Source: a virus
DNA length: 64,000 bases
Reading direction: 5' to 3' (one strand)
IMG/VR virus record: IMGVR_UViG_3300009180_000039
Coordinates: 6,243 to 70,242 of that record
The notes below the pieces were generated by a model, which saw only the letters and a program-made list of their open reading frames with translations, was not told the origin of the DNA and did not search any database. How positions within the stretch are numbered: the first letter of the stretch is position 1; every line of letters begins with the position of its first letter. Position numbers and translations under genes: made by a program. Shown here piece by piece: positions 45,069-63,896 of this stretch.

Positions 45069-45751
45069 TTGTTCTTTCTTTTGTATCGCACTGGGGTCGT
45101 AAGGGCTCGCTCTAACTCCCACCCAGCAGTAAGACGGGCACATAGAGCAGGATAGTTTATGCCTGTCTCCTCTGCCCATGCAACCATACACTGCGTCTTT
45201 CCGAAAGCCGTAAGCAGTGTATTGTTTCGGCGATTTCTAGCTTGTTCCGTATACGTTGCCCATTTACAGTTCTCTGGGCAATATCCTTTGTTTACATCTT
45301 TTCTATCAATGGTATGCCTAGCGGAGGGCCTTGGTCCGACATCCCGTAGAAAGGTTTCAAATCCTGTAAGAGGATCGGACCATTCCGAGCATACGGCAAC
45401 ACCTCTCCCGCCGTAGTCGTTCCATCCAATATCGTTAGCATTAGTGCATCTATGTATGATACAGCTCCATGAGCCATACTCGGGCATGTGGGAAAGCCCA
45501 TGTGTTCTAACTAAACCTCCGACTATTCCAGGTTGCAGGCATCCGCAACTCCTAGTGTTGCCGTTAGGTAGATGGTCCGCTCGTATTACTACTGCTTCAG
45601 GGTTTCCGCAAGAACAAGTGCATACCTGCCATGTTTTTACTCCCATTCGAAACCTAGGACCAAGGGTTGTTAAACGACCGAAAGTCTCTGGAACAAAGTC
45701 CTTGTAGTCACTTGCAATTCTGATCCCATGTACTAGAATGTACTTATCCAT
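45065..45751 (-). CDS. HNH endonuclease 1 (free-standing)
   Basis: GRLT, C.C.CG, SCGC, YGGRG..VC, IDR.D....Y.P.NC.WAT..EQ..N motifs. Confidence 0.9.
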   Translation of the reverse strand: MDKYILVHGIRIASDYKDFVPETFGRLTTLGPRFRMGVKTWQVCTCSCGNPEAVVIRADHLPNGNTRSCGCLQPGIVGGLVRTHGLSHMPEYGSWSCIIHRCTNANDIGWNDYGGRGVAVCSEWSDPLTGFETFLRDVGPRPSARHTIDRKDVNKGYCPENCKWATYTEQARNRRNNTLLTAFGKTQCMVAWAEETGINYPALCARLTAGWELERALTTPVRYKRKNK

Positions 45752-45845
45752 AGATGATACTGTCCTATCGTTTGTGGCTAGAAAAGCCAGTGGGGTACGA
45801 TCCACTGGCTTTTCGCATTGTAGCACATCTACTTGATTCTTGCAA
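45712..45845. promoter_or_regulatory. Convergent promoter / hairpin / antisense-RNA cassette of HNH1
   Basis: Minus TTGCAA-17-TACAAT (45845-45817); 13-bp hairpin 45781-45814; plus TTGCAA-16-TAGAAT (45712-45739) inside the ORF. Confidence 0.75.
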
Positions 45846-45849
45846 GAAT

Positions 45850-46158
45850 CTACTTCTTAGCCGTTCCACGGCTCCCAGGAACACTAGACTTACCGGAAAC
45901 AGACCCCCTAGTGCCGGTTCCCGGCAACTGGCCGCCTAGACGGCCTTGGTTGTCCTTAATTGTTACACGATTCCCGGACACCACTGCTGACCCTGTGATC
46001 CGACCGCTGGCATCTCGCACAGTGATCTTAGGTCCAGTAATCACCAGGGAGCCTTGCAGTCTCCCTTGGGTGTCACGGAGCGTGAAACGCTCAGCGGCTT
46101 GGATTGTAACTGGCAAAATGCACAGTAACGTAAAAAGGGTTACGATTGCAGTTTTCAT
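45850..46158 (-). CDS. Small secreted beta-hairpin repeat protein
   Basis: Signal peptide plus three (R/K)D..GR..G repeats. Confidence 0.7.
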   Translation of the reverse strand: MKTAIVTLFTLLCILPVTIQAAERFTLRDTQGRLQGSLVITGPKITVRDASGRITGSAVVSGNRVTIKDNQGRLGGQLPGTGTRGSVSGKSSVPGSRGTAKK

Positions 46159-46159
46159 G

Positions 46160-47239
46160 TTAGTATTTCTTACCTGCCACCGCTTTGCGGTTCTCTGGTT
46201 TGTGGTCGCTACGCGACGAATTGAACTTCTCTTTTGCTTCCATGATCGTGCCTAGCTCGATCCCAAGGAACCCGGCGAGGTCAAACACTCGGATCAACAC
46301 GTCGGCAAGCTCGACCGCAATCATATCGTATTCTGGTAGCTTGTCGTCCTTGAGGCCCCTTCGGTGGCCCTCTAGTGCCTCGGCTACTTCAGACACAACT
46401 AGGGCTAGCTTGGTTGGGACTACCAGCGGATTGTCCGCTGCATCCCACCAGCCTGTAGCTTTTTGTTTTTCGTGGATTGTCTTGCATAGGTCATTGATGA
46501 CCTCGGTGACTGCTGACTGGGCTAATTCCTTCTGCATCTTGCGAATGATGCCAACCCAATAGGATGCCCAGTATGCCTGTCCTTGCTTTTGTAGCTCGGC
46601 AACGGTGCTACCAATGCCACTGCGTACATCACTATCTACTACTCCGATAGCTTTCATGTATTGGTCCCCATCGACGAGTACCTCGTCCTCTGCTACATAT
46701 CGCCAGCCAGCAGGCGGATCAGGTCGAGTATCTACTGGTTCAGGGGCAAGAGCCGGTGGAACCGGCTTAGGCCAATCGAACCCGGTGCAGCCTACTAGGT
46801 GCAGAGCGATACTGTCCTCGTCATCCATGTCATGGTCTTCGATCCATAGACCTTTTTCCATGTAGGTTTCCACACAGCCATCCTCTTTTGCCATAACCAT
46901 AGGATAGGTGTCATGGTGTGTCCTGCTATTGCAATACAAACGCTCGTCTGCGTTCGTCTCGTACCATTGCCCCACTTCCAAGGTGCCGTTAAACGACACT
47001 ACGGCGGGGACAGGTGCTTCGAGTTCGACGAAAGCGTATTTCCATGTATCGGTCGGTCCTTGGTAGGGGGCAGTTCCGGCGATAATGCCCTCTAGTTCCT
47101 GACGACATGGGTATCCGATAGCTTCGCTAATGTCTTCAAGGTCGTCAAAGTACACTTCTTTTCCAATATCCCTGTGATCGGCAAGCCGATACTTCTTGCC
47201 TTCGTGCCAGTAAATCTGGGTCACTGTAGTTTGTGCCAT
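46160..47239 (-). CDS. Multi-domain protein with C-terminal MazG-like NTP pyrophosphatase
   Basis: KLAL..SE..EA.E...ELADV.IR..DL...K...N..R motif at the C-terminus. Confidence 0.85.
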   Translation of the reverse strand: MAQTTVTQIYWHEGKKYRLADHRDIGKEVYFDDLEDISEAIGYPCRQELEGIIAGTAPYQGPTDTWKYAFVELEAPVPAVVSFNGTLEVGQWYETNADERLYCNSRTHHDTYPMVMAKEDGCVETYMEKGLWIEDHDMDDEDSIALHLVGCTGFDWPKPVPPALAPEPVDTRPDPPAGWRYVAEDEVLVDGDQYMKAIGVVDSDVRSGIGSTVAELQKQGQAYWASYWVGIIRKMQKELAQSAVTEVINDLCKTIHEKQKATGWWDAADNPLVVPTKLALVVSEVAEALEGHRRGLKDDKLPEYDMIAVELADVLIRVFDLAGFLGIELGTIMEAKEKFNSSRSDHKPENRKAVAGKKY

Positions 47240-47240
47240 A

Positions 47241-48632
47241 TTAAATAAACTCCGAAATAAGGTGGAAACGACCAAGGGGAGGTGCGCCTCCCACAGCCAA
47301 ATAAGACGATGGTAGTTGTGACAGATAGTTCCGCTCCCGCAAAACTATCCAATTCATTCTTGTGATCTGTTGATCTCTTTCCGTTACGGTCGCGTTTAGC
47401 CCTAAGCAGGCGTTAGCATACGCCCAAATAGACTTGCTACCAGTAAATGAGGATTGTGTTAGCCAGTAGGTGCTACCGTGGTAAGCATCTGCGTTGACTT
47501 GACTAGCAGTAAGCACAAGGGACTTGAACTCGCTGCTAATAGCCCTAAGCTTAGACCACGCATGTTCTATCGCTTCATGGCTTTTTTCAAAGCCCCGGCT
47601 AAACCCAAGCAAAGCGGCATAGTCGATTCCAATAACATCAGGAACCCATCCCTTGTTTGCCCATCCCAGTAGTGTCTTGTGTAAATCTTCTACTGTCATG
47701 GTTCGGGCTGGTCTTGTGATAAAACGAATTAGGCACTCGCCTGCCGGGTCTTTTAGCTTAGTCCACGCTTCGCTTGCCTCGTCAGTAGTATACGCAGCCT
47801 TCTGGTACTTCTCTAAGTATTCCAAAGAAAATTCTTTGTTTTCGTACTTCAGGCTCGTAGGAATCTTGATTTTCCCCGCAAATTCGGACTTACCTACGAA
47901 TCCAGTAGTCCATCGCTTTAGCATTTGCTCGGTGCTCAAGTCACCCAGATTAAAGAAAGCGACACGCTTTCCCTGTAGCAATGCCCTCTGGCATAGATTG
48001 GTCAGGTGGCTGGACTTACCTGACTTATCCGCACCGCATAGAACTACTAAAGCATCCCTGTGTAACGTAGGTCCGAACCACCGGCTGATTGCAGTCCCTT
48101 CTTTGAACTTAATCAAAGGCTCATAATTAGCCGCTGTATGGGATTGGGCAATAATAGAAGGGTCATTGATGGGGTCCAGGTAGTCAACATCGGCAGTCAA
48201 TGTTGGAGGTTGCCATGTTTTGATAGTATCCGTGGCAGCTTGGACGTTGCCGTTGGCTAACGCAGCTTGGACCCTATCGGCTAGTTGCTTTGCTGAATGG
48301 CGGACAACTAGCCTTTCTATAAGCGAGACAGCATAGTCGGGGTTCAGTTGCGTAGGACTCAATGACGAAAGGAATTTACCGACCAGCGAGGACGTAGCCT
48401 CGTCAGCGGTATTCGCCCATTCGGCATAGATCGCAGTAAGCGATACCGCCCCAGGGGCTTCCTTGTATTCCGCATAGTGCTTTCGGCACCAGTTGTACAC
48501 CAGATTAGATACTTTGGCAGCAAACGGCGATTCGGGCAAAGCATCCACAACTCGGGATAGTACCTCGGTGTCTAAGCACAGAGCTACTAATGCTAGCTGT
48601 TCTTCCGTTCCTTTCACTTGGGTCACTTGCAT
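47241..48632 (-). CDS. dnaB: Replicative DnaB-like (SF4) helicase
   Basis: Walker A GADKSGKS, IGIDYA, LTASQ motifs; next to primase. Confidence 0.88.
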   Translation of the reverse strand: MQVTQVKGTEEQLALVALCLDTEVLSRVVDALPESPFAAKVSNLVYNWCRKHYAEYKEAPGAVSLTAIYAEWANTADEATSSLVGKFLSSLSPTQLNPDYAVSLIERLVVRHSAKQLADRVQAALANGNVQAATDTIKTWQPPTLTADVDYLDPINDPSIIAQSHTAANYEPLIKFKEGTAISRWFGPTLHRDALVVLCGADKSGKSSHLTNLCQRALLQGKRVAFFNLGDLSTEQMLKRWTTGFVGKSEFAGKIKIPTSLKYENKEFSLEYLEKYQKAAYTTDEASEAWTKLKDPAGECLIRFITRPARTMTVEDLHKTLLGWANKGWVPDVIGIDYAALLGFSRGFEKSHEAIEHAWSKLRAISSEFKSLVLTASQVNADAYHGSTYWLTQSSFTGSKSIWAYANACLGLNATVTERDQQITRMNWIVLRERNYLSQLPSSYLAVGGAPPLGRFHLISEFI

Positions 48633-49309
48633 GTTGACCCCTTTGGTCTTTGAGACACTGCTTGTTCGTGAGTCCAGCCCTTGTTTATTCTATGGTTTAT
48701 AGTAGTTATGCCCACGCCATAGACCCTAGACCATTCCGATATTGTTTTAGTTTCTCCAAATGCTGTTATGTGTCGATTGCATCGTTTATTGTTTGCCTGT
48801 TCTTTTGCTGTTGCCCATCGACAGTTTTCAGGGCAGTAATCTCCGTTTACGTCGATTCGGTCAACCGAATGCTTAGGAGAAGGTCTCGGCCCCATGTCTT
48901 CTAGGAAGTTTAGGTACCCGCCGTTTTCTGCTTTCCATCTTGAACACACTTCTATCCCCCTTCCTCCGTAGTGGGGGTAAGATTTTACTTTCTGATTATA
49001 GCATCGCGTGTGCATACTTGACCACGCTCTATATTCAGGCGGCTGCTTGCCATGTACACCATGCCCATGTGTAATTGATCTATTCCTAGTGACTTCCTTG
49101 GCCAAGCACCCACATGAATGTGTCTGTTTTCCTAAACACTGTCGCATAACTACGGCTGTGTTACCGCAAGCACACTGGCAAGTTTGATAGGTCAGCTTGC
49201 CTAGAATGAATCTAGGACCAATGGTCGTTAAACGACCGAAAGTCTCGGGAACAAAATTTTGGTAATCCTTGTCAATACGGATACCATTGATTACAATATA
49301 CTTAGCCAT
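48623..49309 (-). CDS. HNH endonuclease 2 (free-standing)
   Basis: Same motif set as HNH1; shares the FVPETFGRLTT N-terminus. Confidence 0.9.
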   Translation of the reverse strand: MAKYIVINGIRIDKDYQNFVPETFGRLTTIGPRFILGKLTYQTCQCACGNTAVVMRQCLGKQTHSCGCLAKEVTRNRSITHGHGVHGKQPPEYRAWSSMHTRCYNQKVKSYPHYGGRGIEVCSRWKAENGGYLNFLEDMGPRPSPKHSVDRIDVNGDYCPENCRWATAKEQANNKRCNRHITAFGETKTISEWSRVYGVGITTINHRINKGWTHEQAVSQRPKGSTCK

Positions 49310-49402
49310 GATGACTCCTATTAGTCGTTGGTGGTTAGAAAAGCCGGGAGTGTGGTTACTCCCGGCTTTTCGCATTGTAGCACAAACGACAGGTCGTTGC
49401 AA
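49269..49402. promoter_or_regulatory. Convergent promoter / hairpin / antisense-RNA cassette of HNH2
   Basis: Minus TTGCAA-17-TACAAT (49402-49374); 14-bp hairpin 49338-49371; plus TTGTCA-17-TACAAT (49269-49297) inside the ORF. Confidence 0.8.
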
Positions 49403-49413
49403 GGAAATCATAG

Positions 49414-49707
49414 CTACCAGCCGCCCTTGAACTGGATCTGTTCTCTGATGGCCCGCTTCGTTTCGGTAACGATACGGAAATCAACGTCCGGTTTCGGGAT
49501 TCGGTTGTCCCTACTGTTTAGTCTATCCCAAGTAGCGTCGATCCTGAACTTGTGTCGAGTGGATGGTCGAGATAACTCGTAATAGCTATCCAAGACAATT
49601 CCTAGGGACTCGCACCAATAGAAGCGATATCGCTTCCCGGTGAGCCCTTTCAAAGTGTCTACAATCCCTTCAGTTGGATCAACGTCTACTGTTGCTGCCA
49701 GTCCCAT
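49414..49707 (-). CDS. Hypothetical protein
   Basis: ORF directly after primase; RPS.RHK motif. Confidence 0.6.
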   Translation of the reverse strand: MGLAATVDVDPTEGIVDTLKGLTGKRYRFYWCESLGIVLDSYYELSRPSTRHKFRIDATWDRLNSRDNRIPKPDVDFRIVTETKRAIREQIQFKGGW

Positions 49708-49708
49708 C

Positions 49709-50581
49709 CTATTTCTCCCCAAAAGCAAAGCGTCTAAGTTGCCGGACCTCTTGCTCGGATGCCGAGCCTGGGTCTTCTGCGTCCAAATTTACCACAACAG
49801 TTTCTCCTGGGAATACAGATAATTCAGCGGCTAGCTTATTTGCCCTACGCTGTGCATTTTCACTATTGTCAAAGCAGATGATCCTACGCCATATACTGGC
49901 GAGACGATCCACTTGTGCCATAGTGTATGACACACCAAGGGTTGCTACGCAACCTTTACCTACCCGGAACACATCCGTAGGCCCCTCGCAAATGATACAC
50001 GTATCCTTGACGAACTGTGCCCCGAAAAGCAAAGTTTTTTCGTCCATCGACTTTTCGCCGGGACCGGCGTTGCGATACCTCGGCTCTTGCCCGCACGCGG
50101 CCCTAGCCGTCCAGCTAACCGCTTTGCGGTTCAAGTAGATGGGCATGAACACCCGGAACGGGTAATTGCTGAATGGTCCGGTTGCCCGGACTCCCCAGAC
50201 CGTCTCCAGGTACTCTAAATCAAAGCTACGCTGCTTCAGATAGGCAGCTACGGCAGGTACAGCCTCAAGCGGCTGGAGCATAGTAGGCGGAATAAATACG
50301 CCCTTAGAAGCGGTATCCGCTTCCTTGGGTAGATAGGCTCGGTTCCCGAGCAGTTTGTAGATTTCCGACCACGGGGCATCGGTCAGGTCTTTTAGTAGCT
50401 TAGGGACGTGAAACGACCCACAGACGTAGCAATTGGACCTGGAAAGATCGTCTTTTAGACCGCAGTGGAACTTGGTAGAGCCACAGCGAGGGCAATCGGT
50501 CTGGGTCCACCCATGTCTTGAGTGCGAGCGGTCAGTCTTCGACCATCTCGCACCGTATTTATCAAGGAATTCAGTAAGCAT
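49709..50581 (-). CDS. DNA primase (Zn finger + TOPRIM)
   Basis: CP.C...C..C, YL..R, CEG..D, A.LG, FDN and DPG motifs. Confidence 0.9.
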   Translation of the reverse strand: MLTEFLDKYGARWSKTDRSHSRHGWTQTDCPRCGSTKFHCGLKDDLSRSNCYVCGSFHVPKLLKDLTDAPWSEIYKLLGNRAYLPKEADTASKGVFIPPTMLQPLEAVPAVAAYLKQRSFDLEYLETVWGVRATGPFSNYPFRVFMPIYLNRKAVSWTARAACGQEPRYRNAGPGEKSMDEKTLLFGAQFVKDTCIICEGPTDVFRVGKGCVATLGVSYTMAQVDRLASIWRRIICFDNSENAQRRANKLAAELSVFPGETVVVNLDAEDPGSASEQEVRQLRRFAFGEK

Positions 50582-50782
50582 TGGCGGCTCTTCTTGTAAT
50601 GAAAAAGGGGGTAAATTCGTTACAAGCTACCCTCTAGGTTGTGTGGTATTTGCCAGCATGGACAAAGTGCCCACACATGCTAATCACTATGACCGTGGGC
50701 GGGTCTATGACACAGAAACCCTCTAGGGGCCTAGGCCCCATTAGGTTTGCATGGTTCCAGTGCCAGACAATGATTACCATAA

Positions 50783-51025
50783 TCACTCCTGCGGAAGGTC
50801 AGAAAACAATAGCAATTCTTCGTACCCTGAATCCTCATCTGGCAGGCTATCTGTTTCTACTATCCGTAGACCCTTGTGCCAGTGATCGCAAATGCGATCC
50901 ATAGCTAAGGTTCTACCTTCCGTATCGTTACGCCCATTTCCGAAAACAGGTCCGCACGTAAATCGAACGCCTAGGTGCCAAAATATCTTGTCTTTGTCAC
51001 ATACGACGTAGTAATCTGTGCTCAT
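50783..51025 (-). CDS. Hypothetical protein
   Basis: 80-aa ORF, MST.Y...C motif. Confidence 0.55.
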   Translation of the reverse strand: MSTDYYVVCDKDKIFWHLGVRFTCGPVFGNGRNDTEGRTLAMDRICDHWHKGLRIVETDSLPDEDSGYEELLLFSDLPQE

Positions 51026-51144
51026 ATTAACGTAACTTATCCTAATTTGACGTAATTATATGAGGGGCTCACCGTAATGAATCGGTATTTTCCGTAGGGG
51101 CTATTCACCCTTTCTTGGACGCATTCAATATGCTACTGCCCCAG

Positions 51145-51217
51145 CAAACCAGCCAGGACTTGAACCTGGAACCTTCGGTTTTGGGAACCGACGCTCTACC
51201 AATTGAGCTACTGGAAT
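51145..51217 (-). tRNA. tRNA-Trp(CCA), degenerate
   Basis: D arm GCTC-AATTGGTA-GAGC, anticodon arm TCGGT-TCCCAAA-ACCGA, T arm CCAGG-TTCAAGT-CCTGG; two T-T mismatches in the acceptor stem, C33, no encoded CCA. Confidence 0.75.
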
Positions 51218-51263
51218 GGGTAGCCGATATTTAATACGCCCTCGGCAAACGATGCTGTTCTAC

Positions 51264-51377
51264 TCAGTATCCTTTGGTCCCCTTGCCACCCTTACCACTG
51301 CCGCCCTTCGGTGCGGACTTGGTTCCTGTGGACTTAGTACCTGATCCCTTGCCGCCTTTTGCATCGCCCTTTTTCAT
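51264..51377 (-). CDS. 37-aa Lys/Gly-rich basic peptide (below the ORF-track size cut-off)
   Basis: MKKGDAKGGKGSGTKSTGTKSAPKGGSGKGGKGTKGY; ATG just after the upstream stop; varied synonymous codons. Confidence 0.65.
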   Translation of the reverse strand: MKKGDAKGGKGSGTKSTGTKSAPKGGSGKGGKGTKGY

Positions 51378-51378
51378 A

Positions 51379-51945
51379 TCATGCCCTTTCACTTGCTCGT
51401 TTTACGAGCCTGAGATACTCTACAAACTTAGGATGATCCACTCTGAATCTCCTGACTCTTGGTGACCCGTTCCGGGCCATTAGCACAAACCAATCATACA
51501 CGAAAGAAACGGCTGACGGTAGGTACTGGTACAACAAAGTTCCTTCAATTTCCTTGAAGTACGCTTTGTAACCCTGCAACGCTGCTTGCACGTACTCTGG
51601 GTCGATGCTATTGCTGTTGTCCACAATCCTTTCCCATAGTTCATAGGCTTGGATACTGACAGGTAGCTTGCTGGCCACGGGGTCTAGTTCGGCCTCTGCT
51701 AGCAGGGCCTTGAAGTTCCGTACTAGGCTCGGTGTCCCTGGGGCGAATCCCGCCCTATGGACCGATAGCCAATTGACTACGGCTTCAATCTGTTGTTCTG
51801 AAAAGCCTCGTCGAATCAAGTCCTTGAAATCCGCAAGACGGGCAGTGCCCACAGTAACTTGACGGTATTTGGTAAATAACTCGACGAGGCGTGATTTGTT
51901 TTCTTGGCGGAGATGTTGGAACATGGTTAGGGTCGCTTTTTCCAT
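51379..51945 (-). CDS. Hypothetical protein
   Basis: 188-aa ORF in the operon. Confidence 0.7.
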   Translation of the reverse strand: MEKATLTMFQHLRQENKSRLVELFTKYRQVTVGTARLADFKDLIRRGFSEQQIEAVVNWLSVHRAGFAPGTPSLVRNFKALLAEAELDPVASKLPVSIQAYELWERIVDNSNSIDPEYVQAALQGYKAYFKEIEGTLLYQYLPSAVSFVYDWFVLMARNGSPRVRRFRVDHPKFVEYLRLVKRASERA

Positions 51946-52106
51946 GCTGAGTAAACGGTTTCGATGCCCCAGCTAACTGCTGAGCCTATGCAAAGACCAA
52001 GAGTGAAATCATGTAGCGGGCCGTCGTTTACGACGAAAGTGTAGACACCGGCAAAAATTGCCAGAGTACCTAGTCCCGTGAGTATTAGTTTGCAGGTCAG
52101 TATCAT
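51927..52106 (-). CDS. Small two-TM membrane protein
   Basis: Hydrophobic; ATGA-coupled. Confidence 0.55.
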   Translation of the reverse strand: MILTCKLILTGLGTLAIFAGVYTFVVNDGPLHDFTLGLCIGSAVSWGIETVYSAWKKRP

Positions 52107-52768: not shown

Positions 52769-52778
52769 ATCAATTCCC

Positions 52779-56498: not shown

Positions 56499-56800
56499 TG
56501 CCCTCAAACATCGTAGCCCAGTTATCCCGTAGAATCCGCAAGCATTACCCTAATCTCAAGTATCGGATTATTCGCGGTCGGCTAGCCGACGCATTTGCTA
56601 CGACACACCTGCAAGCCGAATCGGGCACGTATATCATAACCATCGATAGAGATGTCAAGCCTGATTTGGCGGCTTTTCTGCTCTGCCATGAAATTTCACA
56701 TGCAATTTCATGGAATTTTGACGCGGTTGAACACGGCGACGGTTTTTGGTCTGCGTACCGGCAGGTGTATCGATTATACGAGGACTTTACCGCAGGATAG
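56498..56800 (+). CDS. Small zincin-like metallopeptidase (HExxH)
   Basis: LLCHEISHA...HG..F motif. Confidence 0.75.
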   Translation: MPSNIVAQLSRRIRKHYPNLKYRIIRGRLADAFATTHLQAESGTYIITIDRDVKPDLAAFLLCHEISHAISWNFDAVEHGDGFWSAYRQVYRLYEDFTAG

Positions 56801-56811
56801 GGTGACGAGGA

Positions 56812-57642
56812 CTAGGTTTTCTTTTTCGTGTACTTCAATGGGGTTTTTAGTGCTGTCTCTAAATCCCATCCACGGCTTATCCGATTCCTTACCGTGCCAT
56901 CATCAATACCGTGTTCTTTCGCCATCTTAGATAACCCGGCAATAAACTTGGTTTTCTTCTGCATTGGCTTAGCCAGGGCATCCTCGGCACTCCATCCCCT
57001 ACCTAATCGCCAAGCTACTGCATTCGGGCAAACTTGAAACTGTTCAGCAAACGCAACTAGCGGCTTAGTCTCGCCAAAAGCAGTAAGTAGCCGATTGTTA
57101 CGTCTGTTTCTGCCCTGCTCTTCTGGTGTAGCCCACCGGCAATTTTCGGGGCAATAGTTACCGTTTACGTCTTTGCGGTCGATTGAGTGTCTAGCGGACG
57201 GTGCCCGTCCTACGCACGACAAGAAGTAGGTGAACCCTGTTTGGGGGTCTAGCCATTCACTACAGACTACAATCCCCCTTCCTCCGTAGTTGTGGTACTC
57301 TTTTGCATTTTCGTTGTAGCAGCTAAAAATCATCCTTCTCCATGCGCGATACTCCTTTGTTCCGTTATTTGTGGCTTCGCCGTGTTTGGCATTGTCTCTA
57401 TTTCGCTGGGCTGTTGCCTCTCGTGTTAGGCACCCACAACTCCTTGCCTTGCCGTTAGCGACTTCGTAGTACCTAGCTACGTGTACGTTACCACAACTAC
57501 ATTCGCAGACAATTCTGGGTATTGGTGTCCCGTTAGGCTGCCTTACCCAGAAAATAGGACCAATAGAAGACAGTCTCCCGCTTGTGATAGGGGTAAAGTC
57601 TGTGTCGATTCTGATGGAATGGTGTATACTATGGTTAGCCAT
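56812..57642 (-). CDS. HNH endonuclease 3 (free-standing, duplicated C-terminal DNA-binding repeat)
   Basis: Same motif set as HNH1/2; two R..RGW..E.AL..P repeats. Confidence 0.9.
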   Translation of the reverse strand: MANHSIHHSIRIDTDFTPITSGRLSSIGPIFWVRQPNGTPIPRIVCECSCGNVHVARYYEVANGKARSCGCLTREATAQRNRDNAKHGEATNNGTKEYRAWRRMIFSCYNENAKEYHNYGGRGIVVCSEWLDPQTGFTYFLSCVGRAPSARHSIDRKDVNGNYCPENCRWATPEEQGRNRRNNRLLTAFGETKPLVAFAEQFQVCPNAVAWRLGRGWSAEDALAKPMQKKTKFIAGLSKMAKEHGIDDGTVRNRISRGWDLETALKTPLKYTKKKT

Positions 57643-57714
57643 GATGACATTTATCCTGTCGTTAGGGTTAGTAGATGCCTAGTGGAGACGACCACTAGGC
57701 ATCTACCTATTATA
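57602..57714. promoter_or_regulatory. Convergent promoter / hairpin cassette of HNH3 (divergent version)
   Basis: Minus TATAAT (57714-57709); 15-bp hairpin 57671-57706; plus TATACT (57625-57630) inside the ORF with a weak -35. Confidence 0.55.
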
Positions 57715-57777
57715 CACTACGACACAGAAAAGTATATGTTTTTCTGTGTAAACTGTCCAACAAGGAATAGTAATGCT

Positions 57778-58419
57778 ATGGCGAGACGAAAGCGTGCAAC
57801 AAGTCAGGACTCCGAAGCTTTTCAGGGCATGCCAAGAAGGTTTAAGCCAAAAAATGAGGCCCAATCCAGGCTGTGGGACATAATAGGGCAGAATACTGTG
57901 ATTTTTGTGCTCGGCCCCCCAGGCAGCGCAAAGACGTTTGTAGCTACTTCTTGGGCGTTAGATGCAGTGCAACGCGGAGAATTTGGTCGCGTGGTTATGA
58001 CCCGCCCTCTTATCCAAAGCACGGAGTCTACCGGCTGGCTAAAAGGGTCGATAGAGGATAAAACGGCTCCGTTTATGCGTCCTATGACAGATATCATGCG
58101 GAAGATATCCCCTAAAGAGCCGGAGATAGACGTAATCCCGCTTGCCTTTATGCGGGGCATCACCTTAGACCATTGTGTGGGACTATTGGACGAAGCCCAG
58201 AACTGTAACGTGCCCCAACTTAAACTGTATCTAACTCGCCTTGGTGAAAAGGCGAAGTTAATCATTAGTGGCGACACGGATCAAGTGGACGTAAACGATA
58301 GCGGTCTGCTTCAAGTGGCGGAAAAATTACGTGGATTACCGGGAGTCGCTGTGTTCGAGTTCACTAAAGCTGATATAGTACGCCATCCTTTGGTTGGGGC
58401 GATGCTAGATAGGTTCTAG
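57778..58419 (+). CDS. phoH: PhoH-family ATPase
   Basis: GPPGSAKT, TRP, K..PF, PLAFMRG.T, DEAQN, LTRLG, GD..Q.D, DIVRHPLV; start moved to MARRKR. Confidence 0.95.
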   Translation: MARRKRATSQDSEAFQGMPRRFKPKNEAQSRLWDIIGQNTVIFVLGPPGSAKTFVATSWALDAVQRGEFGRVVMTRPLIQSTESTGWLKGSIEDKTAPFMRPMTDIMRKISPKEPEIDVIPLAFMRGITLDHCVGLLDEAQNCNVPQLKLYLTRLGEKAKLIISGDTDQVDVNDSGLLQVAEKLRGLPGVAVFEFTKADIVRHPLVGAMLDRF

Positions 58420-58610
58420 GCTCGGCGATTCCAGTCAGCAATAGCCACGTCTCTATCGTACCGCATCCCATCGGGGCAGGAGACTGCCCCACAGCCCGTA
58501 CACTCTACTTTCCAGTCCCCGATATCATCTCTCTGGTAACAGGGGACGGCTTCGCCGCCGCAGAACGGGCAGGGCAATAGGTGGGTCCATTGGACTGTGG
58601 TTGATTTCAT
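58416..58610 (-). CDS. Lar-like (restriction alleviation family) Zn-ribbon protein
   Basis: L.PCPFCGGEA...C..CG...AI..WNRRA. Confidence 0.8.
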   Translation of the reverse strand: MKSTTVQWTHLLPCPFCGGEAVPCYQRDDIGDWKVECTGCGAVSCPDGMRYDRDVAIADWNRRA

Positions 58611-58659
58611 TTGGGCTAGTAGCCTAGCACTAGATGTAGGGCTTTTCTGTGGTCCTAGG

Positions 58660-58932
58660 TCACTCATCGCTAGAGATGCTCCAGTCTTCATCATAGGAAA
58701 CATCGGCCAGTTTCACTGGCAACCTGCCTCTGTCGCATAGCCAACTATCGTTGGCAGGGCGGCAAGCATACGAAACGATATGTACTGGTCCCTTGTCGCA
58801 TAGCCACTCGATCATGTCACACAACCGCAGGCTGTGCCCCTCGTTGATGAGTTCCCCATTGGCATACATGCCAGCCCAGTCATCGGCATAGACTTCGACT
58901 AGCTTAATCTCTTGTACTTTGCTCATCGGCAA
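58660..58932 (-). CDS. Hypothetical protein
   Basis: DDW.G.Y..G.L..EGHS motif. Confidence 0.65.
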   Translation of the reverse strand: MPMSKVQEIKLVEVYADDWAGMYANGELINEGHSLRLCDMIEWLCDKGPVHIVSYACRPANDSWLCDRGRLPVKLADVSYDEDWSISSDE

Positions 58933-59137
58933 TCGCTTTCCATCGGGGTTCCCCGATCAATCTGAAGGTCAAACTATCCTCTGCCCATCTTATAATCACA
59001 GCATCCTGTACGAAACGTCGGTCCCCGACGACCCCGCTAACGGACGCGAAGCCGTGCCATCCCTTACTGATTGCCATGAACAGATCGGGCTGTGGCACAT
59101 ATTCTACCGTAGCTGTAGTCTCTAGGACATCGGGCAT
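58904..59137 (-). CDS. Hypothetical protein
   Basis: 77-aa ORF in the run. Confidence 0.5.
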   Translation of the reverse strand: MPDVLETTATVEYVPQPDLFMAISKGWHGFASVSGVVGDRRFVQDAVIIRWAEDSLTFRLIGEPRWKAIADEQSTRD

Positions 59138-59195
59138 ATACGTCTTCCAGGGACGATTGGCCCAGACCGGGCCCTTGGAGGGTTCCCTCCCTTGG

Positions 59196-59256
59196 CCTAG
59201 TACCTAGTACCTAGTACCTAGTACCTAGTACCTAGTACCTAGTACCTAGTGCCTAG
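59196..59256. repeat. Heptamer tandem array (CCTAGTA)7 + 1.7 degenerate units
   Basis: Read directly; reverse complement of the array at 63910. Confidence 0.97.
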
Positions 59257-59269
59257 GCAGATAGTGGCA

Positions 59270-59665
59270 TTATTCATTCGGTCTCCCCAACCACTGGATA
59301 GCGTAGTTGCTTCCTCTCTTGCATGGAATGAACCTACCAACAAAGATACCCTTGTGCATGTCAATCTGCTTGAGCATCTTAACGAAGTCAGCGAAGAACA
59401 TCTGGTAACGGTTCCCGTTAGTGACACTATGGACCACGAGCCTAGCCGCTGACTGGCCCCGCTCAGTGTCCACTAGGACTAGGGTATCCTCGAACTCGGT
59501 TGCTGGTTCGTATTTTAGTGGTAATGATCTCCGAATTGGAAAGTTGTGGTAGAACATGCTACGTTCCTCTAGGTCGATGTACGGCCCGTTGTCGGTAATG
59601 TACTCCCGCACCCCTTCGCACTCGACATAGGGAACCATCAATGGTTCTTTGGGTTTCTTAGTCAT
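59270..59665 (-). CDS. Hypothetical protein
   Basis: RG.SAA...Y.MF..D...G.F...KRG.NY motif I recall from phage hypothetical proteins. Confidence 0.75.
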   Translation of the reverse strand: MTKKPKEPLMVPYVECEGVREYITDNGPYIDLEERSMFYHNFPIRRSLPLKYEPATEFEDTLVLVDTERGQSAARLVVHSVTNGNRYQMFFADFVKMLKQIDMHKGIFVGRFIPCKRGSNYAIQWLGRPNE

Positions 59666-60140
59666 TGGATCGGTTCCCGATATACTGAATGACTACCTTG
59701 TACATATCATTGTTCTTATCGTCAGTAAAGAACCCAGTAACAGATTCCTCGTCAGCAACTTCGCGTGCCTCGATAAGGCTGACAGCGAGCATAGTAACAG
59801 GGCACTCCTCAGTTTCCAGGTCGATTTGCTGTTGAGCAGCGTGCGACGGACAGCAAGCAGAGGGCGTGCAACGCCCAAGCTTGACAACGCCCTCTTGATG
59901 TGCTTTCCATATCTTCAGCATTGTCTTTATGTCTTCTTTATCTTTCGATAGCTTGATTAGGTACTTTTCATCAAGAGCCAACAGATTGTACCGTTGTACT
60001 CCGCCCCAATTATCTTCGAGTAGGATAATCTCCCAGTGGTGTTTGTTAACGAGTAATGAAAACACACCACGTCGAGGATCAAAGAATACCCCTTCACCTA
60101 GTCGCTCGGCTACTGCTTTGTGGTCGCTATTTACTTTCAT
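59658..60140 (-). CDS. Hypothetical protein
   Basis: 160-aa coupled ORF. Confidence 0.65.
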   Translation of the reverse strand: MKVNSDHKAVAERLGEGVFFDPRRGVFSLLVNKHHWEIILLEDNWGGVQRYNLLALDEKYLIKLSKDKEDIKTMLKIWKAHQEGVVKLGRCTPSACCPSHAAQQQIDLETEECPVTMLAVSLIEAREVADEESVTGFFTDDKNNDMYKVVIQYIGNRSND

Positions 60141-60615
60141 GCTTTTTCTTTGCTTTGATTCTTGCCTTTCGGCGTGATTGAATTTCTGACTCTGTGATGC
60201 CTTGGAACATAGCCACAGGATTCGGCAAAAGCCGAATAGATTGTGCTAAGTTACCATATCCGATGGCTTTCGCAACCGGGAAGTTATTTTCCGAAAGCAG
60301 ATACCACTCCTCCACCAGTATCTTGACTGAGATCCTCAGTCCCTTGAGCCCGGTAGTCTTCTCTATCTCCTCAATGAACTTAGGCTTAGTGATTGCTGCA
60401 ACGGGCGGTCGCCCGTTAGGCAGAGGCTTCCTATAGCTTTTGAGTGCGTCCCGCACCACAGACGGTGCGTAGCCCGTCATTTGGGTTACGGCAGCGTAGG
60501 TCATGTGGACCCCAAGGCTCTTGGCGGCTGATAGTATCTCGCTCTTTGCCCGCTTGCTGGGCAGGAGCGTAGTTTTGTTGGTTTTCCTGGCCATTACTGC
60601 TAGATCCCATGCCAT
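60127..60615 (-). CDS. Basic hypothetical protein with possible HTH (start uncertain)
   Basis: TYAAVTQMTGYAPSVVRDAL is HTH-like. Confidence 0.6.
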   Translation of the reverse strand: MAWDLAVMARKTNKTTLLPSKRAKSEILSAAKSLGVHMTYAAVTQMTGYAPSVVRDALKSYRKPLPNGRPPVAAITKPKFIEEIEKTTGLKGLRISVKILVEEWYLLSENNFPVAKAIGYGNLAQSIRLLPNPVAMFQGITESEIQSRRKARIKAKKKHESK

Positions 60616-61439
60616 TCCGCAGGCATCATATTTTCCGGGAGCCCCGAAGTGAACCATTTTGTGGGGTAGGCAGTATTCTTCTGCCCATACCCCATAGCTC
60701 GGAGTCTTCCGAGCCAACTGAAACTACTGTTTCCGATAGCAAAGTAAGGCACATAAGCCATGCTGTAAAGCTGGGTAGCTGCATCCGAAATATAGTCCTC
60801 GGCATACAGCGCATCCTTGAAGCCTAACTCAGGCACCAAATGCTCTTTGCACCAAGGTACATCGTCGCTGTAAACGACCAACTGCTCAGAGGCTCCCAAA
60901 CCTCCATTTTTGCCCCTTAGAAGCGAGATCGCTTCCTTGTAGTAGTCTACGCCCATGACCCCGTGGAACGCGAATGCGTTCGGTTGGGTGATGTAGTCGC
61001 CCCGGCGGACATGGATACCTATTGCTTCGAATGATAGCTTATGTAGGAAAGTGCTAAATCCCATCCATGCGGTGTCACCTATCATTTTAGATGTAGTGAA
61101 CATGAACCGTAAGTCCTCGTAACTAGGCAATGCAGCGAGTCGCTGCCAGTAGCCCTGCACAACATAGTCCTTACCGTCATTAGGCACGCTAGATGCCTCC
61201 CATTCGAGCGATATCGCTTCTGGTGGAACTTGGTCCACCGTAGCTGCGGGAACCCGCAGAAGGGTGTTTAGCTCGAATTGGCGAGGGGTAATGCCACTGT
61301 TCTTGTCTTGGTGTGACTTCAGGAAGCTAAGGTCGCATACGACCTCTGCTCCTATTGGCTGTGCCAGCCGCGTAGCGGCTGCGAATTGTATTGCGGTATT
61401 CGCAAGGCCGCCCAGAAGGGTAACATATAGCTTGCTCAC
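60600..61439 (-). CDS. GT11 alpha-1,2-fucosyltransferase-like protein
   Basis: GGLAN..QFA, GYWQ, GIHVRRGDY (GDP-sugar binding), YSDD..WC, NSSFSW; GTG start coupled to the upstream TGA. Confidence 0.9.
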   Translation of the reverse strand: MSKLYVTLLGGLANTAIQFAAATRLAQPIGAEVVCDLSFLKSHQDKNSGITPRQFELNTLLRVPAATVDQVPPEAISLEWEASSVPNDGKDYVVQGYWQRLAALPSYEDLRFMFTTSKMIGDTAWMGFSTFLHKLSFEAIGIHVRRGDYITQPNAFAFHGVMGVDYYKEAISLLRGKNGGLGASEQLVVYSDDVPWCKEHLVPELGFKDALYAEDYISDAATQLYSMAYVPYFAIGNSSFSWLGRLRAMGYGQKNTAYPTKWFTSGLPENMMPAEWHGI

Positions 61440-61837
61440 TTGGCAATCTCCGCAATCTTTTCCAGTAGGACCACTCTCGGTGCAACCGAGACTTTGACCA
61501 ACTTGTAGGTGTTCTCTCCCAAGATAATGACACCTGCGACGCACAGACCTATCGCAAACAGAACTTGGAATATGCCCGCGACGAGTATCTCGTCTCCCCA
61601 TTCGTAGTTGTTTTCGGCTCTTTTGAGGGTGCTTGGTACAAAGTAAGCCAGTACAAATGAACTGACAAGCAGTACCGCACCTAGTATTACGCAGAACAGG
61701 GTAGCTGCCCAATACCAGTTCAGGTACTCGGTCACCACAAGCGGAATCTCAGATTCCACAAACGCGGAACCGCGTTCAATGCGTTCGGCACCTGCTTGCA
61801 GGTATTTGAGCAGTAGGTCTTTTGTTTCTTCGTTCAT
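61436..61837 (-). CDS. Two-TM membrane protein
   Basis: F...EIP.VV.EYL.W, two TM segments, APRV.L motif. Confidence 0.75.
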   Translation of the reverse strand: MNEETKDLLLKYLQAGAERIERGSAFVESEIPLVVTEYLNWYWAATLFCVILGAVLLVSSFVLAYFVPSTLKRAENNYEWGDEILVAGIFQVLFAIGLCVAGVIILGENTYKLVKVSVAPRVVLLEKIAEIAK

Positions 61838-61879
61838 TTGGCAGTTTTCCCACTTATGAAAAGTCGTTAAAATACGAAA

Positions 61880-62029
61880 AGGTTCCGGCAGGACTGGCTA
61901 CCTGCAACGGGGGCCGTTGTTAGACATCCGGCTTTCAACCATCTGGTCATCCCCCAGGGGCTTTCGGCGACTGCCGCCCGCTCCCCTTGCCTTACCCTGC
62001 AATCCGTTAGTTATTCAGCCACGGAACCT
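61880..62029 (-). ncRNA. Structured RNA candidate (~150 nt) with tRNA-like closing helices
   Basis: AGGTTCCG/CGGAACCT terminal stem, adjacent GCAGG-TAGCCAGT-CCTGC hairpin, AACGG/CCGTT helix, GC-rich internal stems; intergenic; strand inferred from context. Confidence 0.6.
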
Positions 62030-62113
62030 AAGTTGCCCTGCCTCAACTTGTCTGGCTAGGAGCTAACTTGCTATCAGTATACGCCGGGAACCGGCCCTTG
62101 TGGGGAGAAATTG

Positions 62114-62278
62114 CTAGAATTTCTTGAACTCATCTACGCCATGTATCTTGCAATGGCACTTATAGCAAACCACTTGGATGTCGCTACGCTATTCCTTGCC
62201 AAGTGGTTGTAAAACGACGGCATCATTGTCCTCCAGGTGCCTGATGATTTCTTTGTGTGCGTTTCTTTCTGGTTTCAT
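62114..62278 (-). pseudogene. Small ORF with in-frame TAG followed by an HNH C-terminal relic
   Basis: ...LGKE*RSDIQVVCYKCHCKIHG resembles the LG.E...D...LC..CH...H end of small HNH nucleases. Confidence 0.5.
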
Positions 62279-62496
62279 TCTTCTAACTTCCACCCTTTCG
62301 ATGTTGCTACCCACGGCCCGGAAAGCTTTTCCCGGCTGCCTGTTTTTACTTCCCGGATCACGCCGTTGTGTAACACCCCGCACCGAAACGTCTTCCCGCT
62401 CCTGATGTGTACCAGGGCGACGGGGCCCAGGACGCAGGCAGCGGTCCATTTATCGACCTCGTACTCGCCGCTATCTTCGTTGTACTCCAACTTCAT
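62275..62496 (-). CDS. Hypothetical protein
   Basis: 73-aa ORF, AGGGG RBS, ATGA-coupled to the next ORF. Confidence 0.6.
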   Translation of the reverse strand: MKLEYNEDSGEYEVDKWTAACVLGPVALVHIRSGKTFRCGVLHNGVIREVKTGSREKLSGPWVATSKGWKLEE

Positions 62497-62673
62497 AATT
62501 TTCCCCTAAAGTAAAATGGAAACCCAGGATTACCGCTCCTGGCCGCGCCGGTCGCAAATCGACGCTGTTCGTCATGCTCGAAAGTTTCGCCCGGACCTTT
62601 TGCTTGCCCGTCCGAAGTATTCTACACAAAATACCTAACGTGGGAAATGTTTTTTCAAATCTTTTCTTGGCTC

Positions 62674-63783
62674 TCATTGATTTGGTTTCTCCTTTAATGA
62701 AACGACTATCCCGGCCTTTTTGAAACGGGCCACCATCACCCGGCGAACATAATCCACTTTGTTTATAGGCACCATGACTTCATCATGGCAAGTAATCACA
62801 GGAATTCCCTTGTAGTCTTTGGTTATCGTTGCGGCAACACCGTCGATCATTATTAGAGATTCAAGTGATTGCATATCGTGGGCCACACGCTGATATCCTC
62901 CTTCGACCTTGCGTTGCCGCAAGTAGGAAGCCACGCTGGGCCATCTGCATTCGATTACCTGGAAGTAGGGGCACTTTTCCATAGCCCACACACGGTCGAA
63001 AATGGTTTTGATTACGGAGTTCTTGATCGTAGCACGATCATTAACCCCAATTTCGTTGCCGAATTCCTCGTACAGAACACCCCGTTGACATAGGCTTTCC
63101 CATTCCAGGGCATCAGGGCCGGGGAATCTTCGCTTGGCTAATAGCCCGAGTAACGCAGGCTGGCAGCATTGTACATCAATGGCCGTCAACGGCCACCGGG
63201 ACTGTAGGTAGTGGCGATGTTTGCAGTTGGTAAAGTTGCTATGGAACCTGCCAAAGTCACAGCGTAGGGCAAACCAATTCTTTTGGCGAATCCTGGACGC
63301 GGTGAACATTTGCCATGGGTTACCAAAATCCAGGCAATCAGGAAGCCACACAGAAGCAAACCGGGAATAGAGTTCCTTGGAAATTGGGTCCAAGTTGAAG
63401 TTGAATGGAGAGCTACGGGGTTTTCGGCTCAGGGTGTGGTAGTCGGCTTCGCCGCTCAGGTATTCAGGCTGGAAACGGATGGACTGAGAAAAAGACGATC
63501 CAGGCTCATTGGAATACCTATCGTTGAAGTCAAACAGGTGGCTATGTTCTCTGGCCGCCTGTTTGGCTTTATGGGCGTAATTTCCGCCATAAGTATAATG
63601 CAATTGGTTGTAGCTAAGGGGTACGTAATGCCTGTAGTCTATGTACGCATCACGAGAAGCCGTCATGCACATTAGCCACCAAGCAAGGCGGGCTACTTCG
63701 TCGGCCCATTCCCCTTGGATATTAGAATTTTTGGGAACAGGAATGACCAGTTTGTTGACGGGATCTTGGTCACAGTGTATCAT
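62674..63783 (-). CDS. Small superfamily-A-like polymerase (TV-Pol-like; candidate primase-polymerase/Rep)
   Basis: GRFHS..TN, motif A IDVQCCQP, motif B-like R...K...., MQSLES, motif C CHD; no exonuclease; extra N-terminal domain. Confidence 0.75.
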   Translation of the reverse strand: MIHCDQDPVNKLVIPVPKNSNIQGEWADEVARLAWWLMCMTASRDAYIDYRHYVPLSYNQLHYTYGGNYAHKAKQAAREHSHLFDFNDRYSNEPGSSFSQSIRFQPEYLSGEADYHTLSRKPRSSPFNFNLDPISKELYSRFASVWLPDCLDFGNPWQMFTASRIRQKNWFALRCDFGRFHSNFTNCKHRHYLQSRWPLTAIDVQCCQPALLGLLAKRRFPGPDALEWESLCQRGVLYEEFGNEIGVNDRATIKNSVIKTIFDRVWAMEKCPYFQVIECRWPSVASYLRQRKVEGGYQRVAHDMQSLESLIMIDGVAATITKDYKGIPVITCHDEVMVPINKVDYVRRVMVARFKKAGIVVSLKEKPNQ

Positions 63784-63896
63784 GTAGCTATGGCTTTCTG
63801 GGCAGTGCGGTGTCTGGAACGCTTAGAAAAGCCGTTGGCGGTGAACCAACGGCTTTTCGCTTTTACCCATTGTACGGGGTTTCGGGATTTTGTCAA
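63755..63896. promoter_or_regulatory. Convergent promoter / hairpin / antisense-RNA cassette of the small polymerase
   Basis: Minus TTGACA-16-TACAAT (63896-63869); 13-bp hairpin 63826-63858; plus TTGACG-17-TATCAT (63755-63783) overlapping the ATG. Confidence 0.8.

Follow-up and report, generated by a model that had tools for sequence, protein, structure and literature searches.

The leaders of three HNH endonuclease genes (HNH1, HNH2 and HNH3) and of a further gene, here called ORF4, were analysed in a 64,000-nucleotide stretch of viral DNA (the window), which covers bases 6243-70242 of a 70,242-bp IMG/VR record rated complete by CheckV. The window is the right-hand 64 kb of an uncultivated freshwater phage record, and it is contained in DNA runs labelled as freshwater metagenome. 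In our reading, to which a probability of roughly 0.6 is given, the HNH1, HNH2 and ORF4 cassettes each carry a cis-antisense small-RNA gene of the RepX/FinP type over their own translation-initiation region. The antisense reading appears well supported by comparison with related sequences; synthesis of the RNA, the position of its 3′ end and its repressive effect are inferred from the same material.

As nearly all genes from 28.4 kb to the window end lie on the minus strand, the leaders were read on that strand. Those of HNH1 and HNH2 consist of TTGCAA-17-TACAAT with an upstream TG, two bases, and a 13-14-bp hairpin with the base GAAAAGCC...GGCTTTTC, after which come CTAACCAC (CTAGCCAC in HNH1), a Shine-Dalgarno (SD)-like AGGA(G) and the ATG. 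In the ORF4 leader, TTGACA-16-TACAAT is followed by ten bases and then by the same hairpin base as in HNH1 and HNH2. The original prediction had described one 5′ architecture shared by all four genes, with an opposing promoter written into the first codons. All the promoter and hairpin elements that it quoted were present where it had placed them, and the shared architecture held for HNH1, HNH2 and ORF4 but was degraded in HNH3, which has another hairpin base and no T run. The hairpin base said to be identical in three cassettes was also recovered: AAAAGCC-N-GGCTTTT occurs exactly three times in the window (45782-45813, 49339-49370 and 63827-63857) against an expected 0.01, with no further copy in the whole 70-kb record. 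The antisense sites of HNH1, HNH2 and ORF4 are three of the five plus-strand promoter-like sites found in 44001-64000, and the predicted opposing start sites lie about 64 nt apart (45746 versus ~45810 for HNH1; 49304 versus ~49367 for HNH2).

Relatives were collected by three pattern scans of IMG/VR and a protein-based scan (best 80 of 576 confirmed relatives), yielding 24 non-identical HNH cassettes with the leader, three from the window and 21 from other IMG/VR contigs. One locus (L145), with a nuclease of a different family, was left out of this set, and the start codon of another (L020) was moved by nine bases. Pairwise amino acid identity within the set is 34-98% (median 47%), and the cassettes form 23 clusters at 70% nucleotide identity; with such high divergence, synonymous sites are nearly independent between most of them. 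The sense -10 was invariant in the 24 aligned cassettes, and a perfect stem of 9-16 bp was found in every one of them, 1-3 bases past the TAnAAT hexamer.

Among the 222 scored codon columns, those for Met and Trp apart, the third base was at least 95% fixed only in columns 2, 5, 6 and 12, and each of these has a meaning on the antisense strand. Columns 5 and 6 read ATT (23/24) and NTA (24/24), which corresponds to the antisense -10, TAnAAT; column 12 reads NTT in 23/24, corresponding to the last base of the -35; and column 2 reads NNT in all 24, its T complementing an A that lies seven bases past the antisense -10, where transcription usually starts. Before AAG, column 13 is Ala GCC (eight of eight representatives) or Asp GAC, and otherwise GCA (11/11), TTG being kept either way. 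The spacer codons 7-11 show a synonymous diversity of 0.45-0.75, compared to a gene-wide median of 0.56 over 143 columns, of which the six with the lowest diversity are 2, 5, 17, 12, 4 and 6. Elsewhere in these HNH genes, ATT makes up only 30% of the Ile codons. A match to the antisense promoter of at least 9/12 was found within the first 18 codons of 22 of the 24 cassettes (the misses being HNH3 and the relative L039a), a score reached in 2-18% of trials with synonymous recodings and in 6 of 527 control windows of 54 nt from the rest of the HNH genes. The opposing promoter proposed in the first codons is borne out by these patterns, which support purifying selection on it at synonymous sites in the HNH genes. 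On these alignments, a constraint of the form hexamer-spacer-hexamer is unlike general 5′-end codon bias.

The predicted RNA was delimited from the conserved A to the short T run past the hairpin, which gives a length of 73-75 nt, and in the four window cassettes it folds into two hairpins (z of -7.3, -7.3, -6.1 and -4.5). In the first stem-loop (SL1), AGCCAU (complementary to AUG-GCU) forms a helix with GUGGUU (complementary to the CTAACCAC box), with the anti-SD at the top, and this pairing explains why that box is conserved. The stability of SL1 is confined to the antisense strand, since it includes several G.U pairs. In 24/24 cassettes its fold was more stable than that of the sense complement (-10.0 versus -4.3 kcal/mol), with a mean z of -3.0 after dinucleotide shuffling (20 distinct sequences, 16 of them below -1.64) and z of -2.9 in antisense and -0.6 in sense after mononucleotide shuffling. 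In an unfitted MAFFT alignment, 90.2% of the cells were paired versus 78.6% in shuffles (none of 500 as high) and 35-50% in slid controls, and 13 pairs had changes on both sides. The corresponding values in the model-fitted alignment A3, with 43 distinct rows, were 93.5% and 76.5% in shuffles; in this alignment SL1 was paired in 88.7% when read as antisense and in 72.2% when read as sense, with 92 G.U cells versus 9 A.C cells. The A-run/U-run base of the second stem-loop (SL2) carries the compensated changes GAAAGGCC/GGCCTTTC and GAAGAGCC/GGCTCTTC.

The comparisons support a predicted counter-transcript that is a conserved, covarying and strand-specific two-hairpin RNA over the SD and the AUG. 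The claim that such a transcript covers the ribosome binding site (RBS) held up to this extent but did not extend to ORF4, whose predicted RNA, with an SL1 of unrelated sequence, ends before the AUG and would cover the 5′ untranslated region (UTR) only. It had also been proposed that gene-specific loops prevent cross-talk. In duplex predictions, cognate RNA-mRNA pairs were indeed much stronger than non-cognate ones (-135 to -144 versus -30 to -67 kcal/mol), but with the SD/AUG part alone HNH2 and HNH3 cross-paired at -39 to -43, and therefore specificity between these paralogues is not guaranteed.

The control proposed here would operate as follows. A sigma70-type promoter located in codons 5-14 of the HNH genes, or with its -10 over the start codon of ORF4, would fire on the plus strand, the RNA beginning with the A that faces the third position of codon 2. 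The product, of about 73 nt, would consist of SL1 with the anti-SD at its tip, a GUUAG linker, and SL2 with a short U run at the point where the sense mRNA starts. Since this RNA would be perfectly complementary to the 5′ UTR, SD and start codon of the mRNA, its pairing would block ribosome binding, and it would probably expose the duplex to cleavage. Expression of the endonuclease would be held low, and so would that of open reading frames (ORFs) coupled behind it, translationally or transcriptionally, such as the DnaB-like ORF after HNH2 and PolA after HNH1. With 2 nt between the sense promoter and the hairpin, the mRNA would begin inside or just before the 5′ arm and carry the complementary hairpin at its very 5′ end; the conserved hairpin would be the 3′ structure of the antisense RNA and, in its complement, the 5′-terminal hairpin of the mRNA.

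A covariance model (R1) was built from 23 sequences and searched against the window, where it found four copies of the leader. The ORF4 leader, not used for training, scored 33.4 bits (E 1.2e-5), and the next full-length match 14.7 bits. When the model was applied to 220 fetched IMG/VR loci, 33, 61 and 4 matches were obtained at E <= 0.001, many of them before genes outside this HNH family: cpn10 (PF00166, E 1.5e-11), HNH_3/AP2 endonucleases, a DUF5906 primase-like protein and a 77-aa Cys-rich protein. The notion of a portable leader was supported in this way, whereas the idea that it serves to restrain toxic DNA-acting enzymes has to be given up as a general description, cpn10 and the Cys-rich protein being among its targets.

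The counter-promoter was scored in 42 distinct non-training R1 matches. In 22 of 24 cpn10-type leaders, TTGTC[ACG]-16-TAAAAT was found ending seven bases before AGCCAU, the other two being an 8/12 match and a copy cut by the locus end. ORF4 scored 10/12, two loci (L018 and L030) 9/12 and two more (L005 and L185) 8/12, and eight further matches 0-5. The codon test was repeated on 21 cpn10 sequences, in which columns 2, 3, 5, 6, 8, 9 and 13 were without synonymous change and the spacer columns 10-12 gave 0.47-0.65. In the cpn10-type leaders, the antisense promoter is accompanied by both hairpins, a stop codon abuts SL2 and there is no sense promoter directly upstream.

Two of the fetched loci combine parts of different cassettes. 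At L142:420-911 (minus strand), an HNH_3/AP2 gene shares its first six codons (MADVDF) and its leader with the cpn10 genes of sister contigs, with the -10 retained and the -35 lost; from the sequence it looks as if the endonuclease had been inserted just inside the cpn10 start. The leader at L036:4338-4496 is mosaic-like, its promoter being close to that of window HNH2, its inner stem equal to that of window HNH1 and its coding start close to that of another locus, L014, which suggests recombination inside leaders. In Pseudomonas phage D3, the gene of the HNH homologue overlaps the one before it and lacks the leader. Cellular genomes were searched with AGCCAT-N18-34-GGTTAGAAARGCC, which occurred in 62 stretches, none of them matching R1 at E <= 0.01; these stretches were taken as chance, about 10^2 being expected for uniform base composition.

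A wider reading can be put forward tentatively, at less than even odds: a RepX-like cis-antisense RNA family might serve as a mobile translational-control leader of uncultivated freshwater phages, and it might share ancestry with the copy-control RNA of IncQ plasmids. What would move between genes is the leader, made up of SL2, the CTAACC box, the SD region and AUG-GCU; homing endonucleases would travel behind it or invade it, as L142 may illustrate, and the counter-promoter would be re-created in the first codons of the recipient, so shaping the N-terminal peptides of unrelated proteins.

Short cis-antisense RNAs with a promoter in or near the 5′ end of their target and covering its RBS include IS10 RNA-OUT/RNA-IN, P22 sar and SymR/SymE, which resemble the leader in layout. 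The analogy with plasmid counter-transcribed RNAs made in the original prediction proved apt, the nearest known RNA being RepX of R1162/RSF1010. At gathering thresholds, Rfam reported only a tRNA; below them, RF00043 (R1162-like plasmid antisense RNA) matched 49302-49372 over the whole model with 34.6 bits (E 0.002 in 3.9 kb and 9.4e-6 for the record). Common to the HNH2 leader and the consensus in this match are UAACCACCAAC, GGAG and AUGGCUA. The matched strand is that of the mRNA, and an SD and AUGGCU can be read in the printed consensus as well, which suggests that the model represents the overlap in its sense orientation. In the available part of PMC8136791, RepX is given as 75 nt long and as antisense to the RBS and start codon of repA-repC, its two stem-loops being linked by GUUA; it is a FinO ligand, is exceptionally stable, and mutations in it raise the plasmid copy number.

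The predicted phage RNAs have about the same length and also two stem-loops, with GGUUAG as the linker in the R1 consensus where RepX has GUUA (PMC8136791, in part). The Rfam consensus shares UAACCAccAAc, GGAG and AAUGGCUA with the HNH2 leader, and it implies an RNA that starts at the complement of AUG-GCU, a geometry by which the promoter must lie inside the target coding sequence. The geometry of the phage leader and the conservation of its promoter fit a putative RNA that, as RepX, is antisense to the RBS and start codon. They differ in the base of SL2, which is A-run/U-run in the phage (GAAAAGCC...GGCUUUUC) and G+C-rich in RepX. The phage element is, moreover, present in several copies per genome, and it lies in a 70-kb virus record opposite HNH endonucleases, cpn10, primase-like and other genes, not opposite repA-repC in an IncQ plasmid. 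A blastn search of the HNH2 leader against 72,556 plasmids gave no match. Compared in this way, through the Rfam model and the published description, the phage leader may work like RepX, and both descent and convergence on AUG-GCU pairing are possible.

The layout of HNH1, HNH2 and ORF4, a promoter and a stem-loop between a stop codon and the next SD/ATG, is also that of the PeSL cassettes of T4-like phages. According to the excerpts available of PMC2839356 and PMC4122927, these consist of a sigma70-like promoter and a stable stem-loop, placed just past the -10 in one subclass, and have been proposed to move genes by recombination between cassettes; the mosaic look of the L036 leader, part HNH2 and part HNH1, is a further likeness. 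In contrast to the leader described here, no antisense promoter or RNA is described for PeSLs in those excerpts, the word 'antisense' being absent from PMC2839356 as available. As described there, PeSLs are numerous and flank ORFans in hyperplastic regions, whereas only four R1 copies are found in the window, tied to particular genes (HNH, polymerase-like and replication genes); the conserved part of the phage leader, furthermore, extends into the coding sequence.

In the T4 family, the endonuclease genes I-TevI, segB, mobE of Aeh1 and seg43 of phage 25, which are free-standing or lie in introns, have promoters and 5′ hairpins of their own and are subject to multi-layer down-regulation; the hairpin of seg43(25) lies just upstream of an RBS that it does not sequester (PMC2988022, in part). 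The mechanisms given in that source are promoter choice, autorepression and hairpins that sequester the RBS; in the present leaders the SD is outside the hairpin and there is a conserved counter-promoter. In the available part of PMC2988022, 'antisense' is used only for transcripts from an oppositely placed promoter and for the orientation of segD, and in the literature searched, as far as its accessible text goes, no dedicated cis-antisense RNA was found for a homing endonuclease.

Several results weigh against the antisense reading. Promoter-like sites are no denser in the region than expected by chance (24 versus 20.0 +/- 4.7 in shuffles), and the case therefore rests on the position of the sites and their conservation in relatives, not on the hexamers alone. 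The scan used an E. coli-type sigma70 consensus, which is assumed to apply in the host. None of the four hairpins satisfied the intrinsic-terminator rule of the scan on either strand, and the U run is only 4 long, or 3 in several relatives; for these reasons the 3′ end and the length of the antisense RNA are predictions. In the 12 bases past the G+C stem of the canonical copies, 7, 7 and 9 T were counted on the antisense side and 5, 5 and 6 on the sense side, a small bias that would favour antisense termination. The hairpin is nearly symmetrical, and a sense-strand role, as a 5′ stabiliser or a partial terminator for upstream genes, is possible. The attenuator role that the original prediction gave it on that strand would have to be exerted by hairpins that fail the terminator rule.

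The comparative data have weak points of the same sign. Alignment A3 had been fitted to the covariance model. The loci had been prefetched by patterns requiring the SL2 base and CTAACC, so that the recurrence of SL2 and of the SL1 base is partly by construction, and only the counter-promoter and the inner SL1 pairs are independent of those patterns. The cpn10 replicate is weak, with a median amino acid identity of 83% and 24 of 85 columns without synonymous change, and the HNH_3/AP2 leaders have a -10-like hexamer only (6-7/12). As to RF00043, its score of 34.6 did not reach the gathering threshold of 55; of the four copies in the window it matched one, it had no match at E <= 1 in 13 other loci, and sub-threshold matches at E <= 10 were obtained in 7 of 14 control genomes.

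HNH3 also speaks against a uniform antisense cassette, since it lacks both a -35 and the T run and faces a real plus-strand gene, phoH-like, whose start is 67 nt past the HNH3 hairpin; RNA transcribed from the plus strand at this place would be the phoH leader and not a discrete small RNA. Its counter-promoter, TATACT, has no acceptable -35, in line with the weak -35 of the original prediction, and on the sense side it has TATAAT (57714-57709) with a poor -35 and, upstream, TGGACA-17-TATACT at 57759-57731. Judged by its sequence, HNH3 is a degraded variant of the leader. Because phoH lies downstream on the plus strand, a bidirectional stop at HNH3 would cut it off, and a T-less hairpin with a degraded counter-promoter would be expected there if the T runs stop transcription in the canonical copies. 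The HNH3 cassette, in opposite orientation, breaks a plus-strand block (55827-56800 and 57778-58419) that contains a metallophosphoesterase gene (55827-56498), a 100-aa ORF and the phoH-like gene.

The RNA could also be made and act other than by repression. It might keep RNase E away from the mRNA 5′ end, guide a processing step that separates the cassette mRNA from upstream transcripts, or partner a protein, for instance the nuclease itself or a chaperone of the FinO/ProQ kind. Protection of mRNA against RNase E by an antisense RNA has been described for phage infection (PMC3113571, in part), RepX is a FinO ligand in the account cited above (PMC8136791), and cpn10, before which the leader also stands, has no obvious need for repression. 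Even so, we consider such an action unlikely: the RNA covers the SD and the AUG, an arrangement that in RepX goes with repression (PMC8136791, as available), and no ProQ/FinO domain is encoded in the phage record.

The role of the counter-promoter could instead be exerted on the DNA, convergent transcription from 64 bp away interfering with the sense promoter or insulating the cassette, with the RNA as a by-product. The promoters do face each other, with start sites about 64 nt apart and the predicted antisense 3′ end falling on the sense start site, and conservation of the promoter would be expected equally. However, the covariation of SL1 and its antisense-only stability would be superfluous for interference, and in the cpn10-type leaders, where a stop codon abuts SL2, no sense promoter lies directly upstream to be interfered with, so that this role seems improbable.

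That there is no antisense RNA at all, the hairpins being terminators or 5′ stabilisers in the manner of PeSLs and the hexamers by-products of the N-terminal peptide and of A/T-rich early codons, is considerably harder to sustain. T4-like phages are known to have cassettes of a promoter and a stem-loop that lack antisense RNAs (PMC2839356, in part). The chance density of promoter-like sites would agree with this, as would the conservation of the N-terminal peptide, the frequency of NTA codons (GTA is 41% of Val codons, and CTA plus TTA 48% of Leu codons) and the fact that HNH3 retains a hairpin without a good antisense promoter. Against it stand the constraint at synonymous sites in a hexamer-spacer-hexamer pattern, with alternative codons that keep TTG; the recoding and within-gene controls, which oppose a by-product; the G.U-dependent stability of SL1, specific to the antisense strand; and the same layout in the unrelated ORF4 leader and in the cpn10 leaders.

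In SymE/SymR, an antisense RNA lies over the 5′ end of a nuclease mRNA. A type I toxin-antitoxin-like addiction cassette, in which a stable mRNA for a nuclease toxin is checked by an unstable antisense RNA, shares only this layout and is very improbable here, as the same leader precedes cpn10, primase-like and polymerase-like genes, post-segregational killing would not obviously benefit a phage whose genome is of the lytic type, and RepX, the closest RNA, is reported as exceptionally stable (PMC8136791, in part).

The features of the cassettes are collected in Table 1. HNH1, HNH2 and HNH3 are paralogous nucleases that matched the PHROG families phrog_374 and phrog_3377, both 'HNH endonuclease', with E from 1e-49 to 1e-57, and no Pfam family at E 0.01; by PHROG, all three belong to the HNH family, as free-standing HNH homing endonucleases do. 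HNH1 is located upstream of a family-A DNA polymerase ORF, and HNH2 is flanked by a primase-like and a DnaB-like ORF, its end and the start listed for the DnaB-like helicase ORF (47241-48632) overlapping by 10 nt.

Table 1. Positions in the window of the cassette genes, their leader elements and the gene facing HNH3
Feature	Position	Strand	Details
HNH1 coding sequence	45065..45751	-	228 aa; phrog_374 HNH endonuclease, E 1.6e-51
HNH1 sense promoter	45817..45845	-	TTGCAA-17-TACAAT with TG (extended -10); begins directly 3′ of the stop codon of ORF 45850-46158
HNH1 hairpin SL2	45781..45814	.	13-bp stem, 8-nt loop; 2 nt past sense -10
HNH1 predicted antisense RNA (SL1+SL2)	45746..45819	+	~74 nt; predicted complementary to 5′ UTR, SD, AUG and codon 2; fold -36.8 kcal/mol, z -7.3; R1 77.7 bits (training copy)
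HNH1 antisense promoter	45712..45739	+	TTGCAA-16-TAGAAT within codons 5-14
HNH2 coding sequence	48623..49309	-	228 aa; phrog_374, E 1.4e-57
HNH2 sense promoter	49374..49402	-	TTGCAA-17-TACAAT with TG
HNH2 hairpin SL2	49338..49371	.	14-bp stem, 6-nt loop
HNH2 predicted antisense RNA	49304..49376	+	73 nt; fold -39.0 kcal/mol, z -7.3; R1 84.1 bits (training copy)
HNH2 antisense promoter	49269..49297	+	TTGTCA-17-TACAAT within codons 5-14
HNH3 coding sequence	56812..57642	-	276 aa; phrog_374, E 3.3e-56
HNH3 two-hairpin element	57637..57711	+	SL1 intact; R1 46.3 bits (training copy); fold z -6.1
HNH3 hairpin SL2	57671..57706	.	15-16 bp; different base, no T run on either side
HNH3 antisense -10-like TATACT	57625..57630	+	codons 5-6; no acceptable -35; not called by promoter scan; score 0 in first-codon scan
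phoH-like gene	57778..58419	+	phrog_170, E 5.2e-55 on longer ORF 57481-58419; ATG at 57778; divergent from HNH3
ORF4 ('polymerase' of the original prediction)	62674..63783	-	369 aa; family-A polymerase palm-like by predicted structure only
ORF4 sense promoter	63869..63896	-	TTGACA-16-TACAAT, 11/12; outermost leftward promoter of the record
ORF4 hairpin SL2	63826..63858	.	13-bp stem, 7-nt loop; base as in HNH1/HNH2
ORF4 predicted antisense RNA	63790..63863	+	R1 33.4 bits, E 1.2e-5 (non-training copy); fold -34.6 kcal/mol, z -4.5
ORF4 antisense promoter	63755..63783	+	TTGACG-17-TATCAT; -10 overlaps the start codon

ORF4 had been labelled a polymerase. This label found some backing in a structural neighbour in the Atlas, annotated as a family-A DNA polymerase palm (TM 0.78), but none in sequence families, no Pfam, PHROG or PDB sequence match having been obtained, and a family-A polymerase-like protein is accordingly put forward as a lead only. 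Two family-A-polymerase-like genes are apparent in the phage, one at 43674-45191 (minus strand; PF00476, E 3.5e-39) and the short ORF4 at 62674-63783 (minus strand), the latter by predicted structure only. No confirmed relative of ORF4 was found in IMG/VR. Among named phages, megablast found no close relative to 45000-58000, and the PolA piece has at most 26% identity to them. The contigs of three DNA runs agreed with the window, showing neither indels at the cassettes nor a variant lacking a cassette. Among the sequencing runs listed as containing 45000-50600, none was of RNA.

In each of three DNA runs, one contig connects 50626 directly with 59167 and so omits 8540 bases, its shorter side measuring only 30-35 bases; the right end of this join lies just before an array of heptamers, and it may be a repeat-driven misjoin or a deletion variant. 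The heptamer GTACCTA forms two inverted arrays, of 8.7 copies at 59196-59256 (plus strand) and of at least 13 copies at 63909-64000 (minus strand), the second of which reaches the contig end. The two arrays bracket a 4.65-kb block with ORF4 and a glycosyltransferase-like gene, and they could reflect an assembly break, a genome-end feature or an invertible block. A tRNA-Trp (CCA) gene is located at 51144-51217 (minus strand), where a depth spike in all four runs corresponds to tRNA-like contigs of other organisms. At the junction of the plus-strand structural block and the minus-strand block, a perfect 12-bp hairpin with a 2-nt loop (28370-28395), which R1 scored at only 14.7 bits, is probably a bidirectional stop. 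Finally, a 38-base unit repeated 2.3 times (4136-4224) and a separate (GTTG)10 array (1195-1234) were detected.

Free-standing homing endonucleases are common in phage genomes. If the RNA is made, antisense control would join promoter choice, autorepression and RBS-sequestering hairpins in the regulation of homing endonucleases, and a two-hairpin antisense RNA of the RepX/FinP type would be placed outside conjugation and plasmid-replication systems. The cassette is of about 150 bp, self-contained and with sigma70-type signals, so it could be tested in E. coli without a known host. It would also be a clean natural example of a promoter kept inside a coding sequence by selection at synonymous sites.

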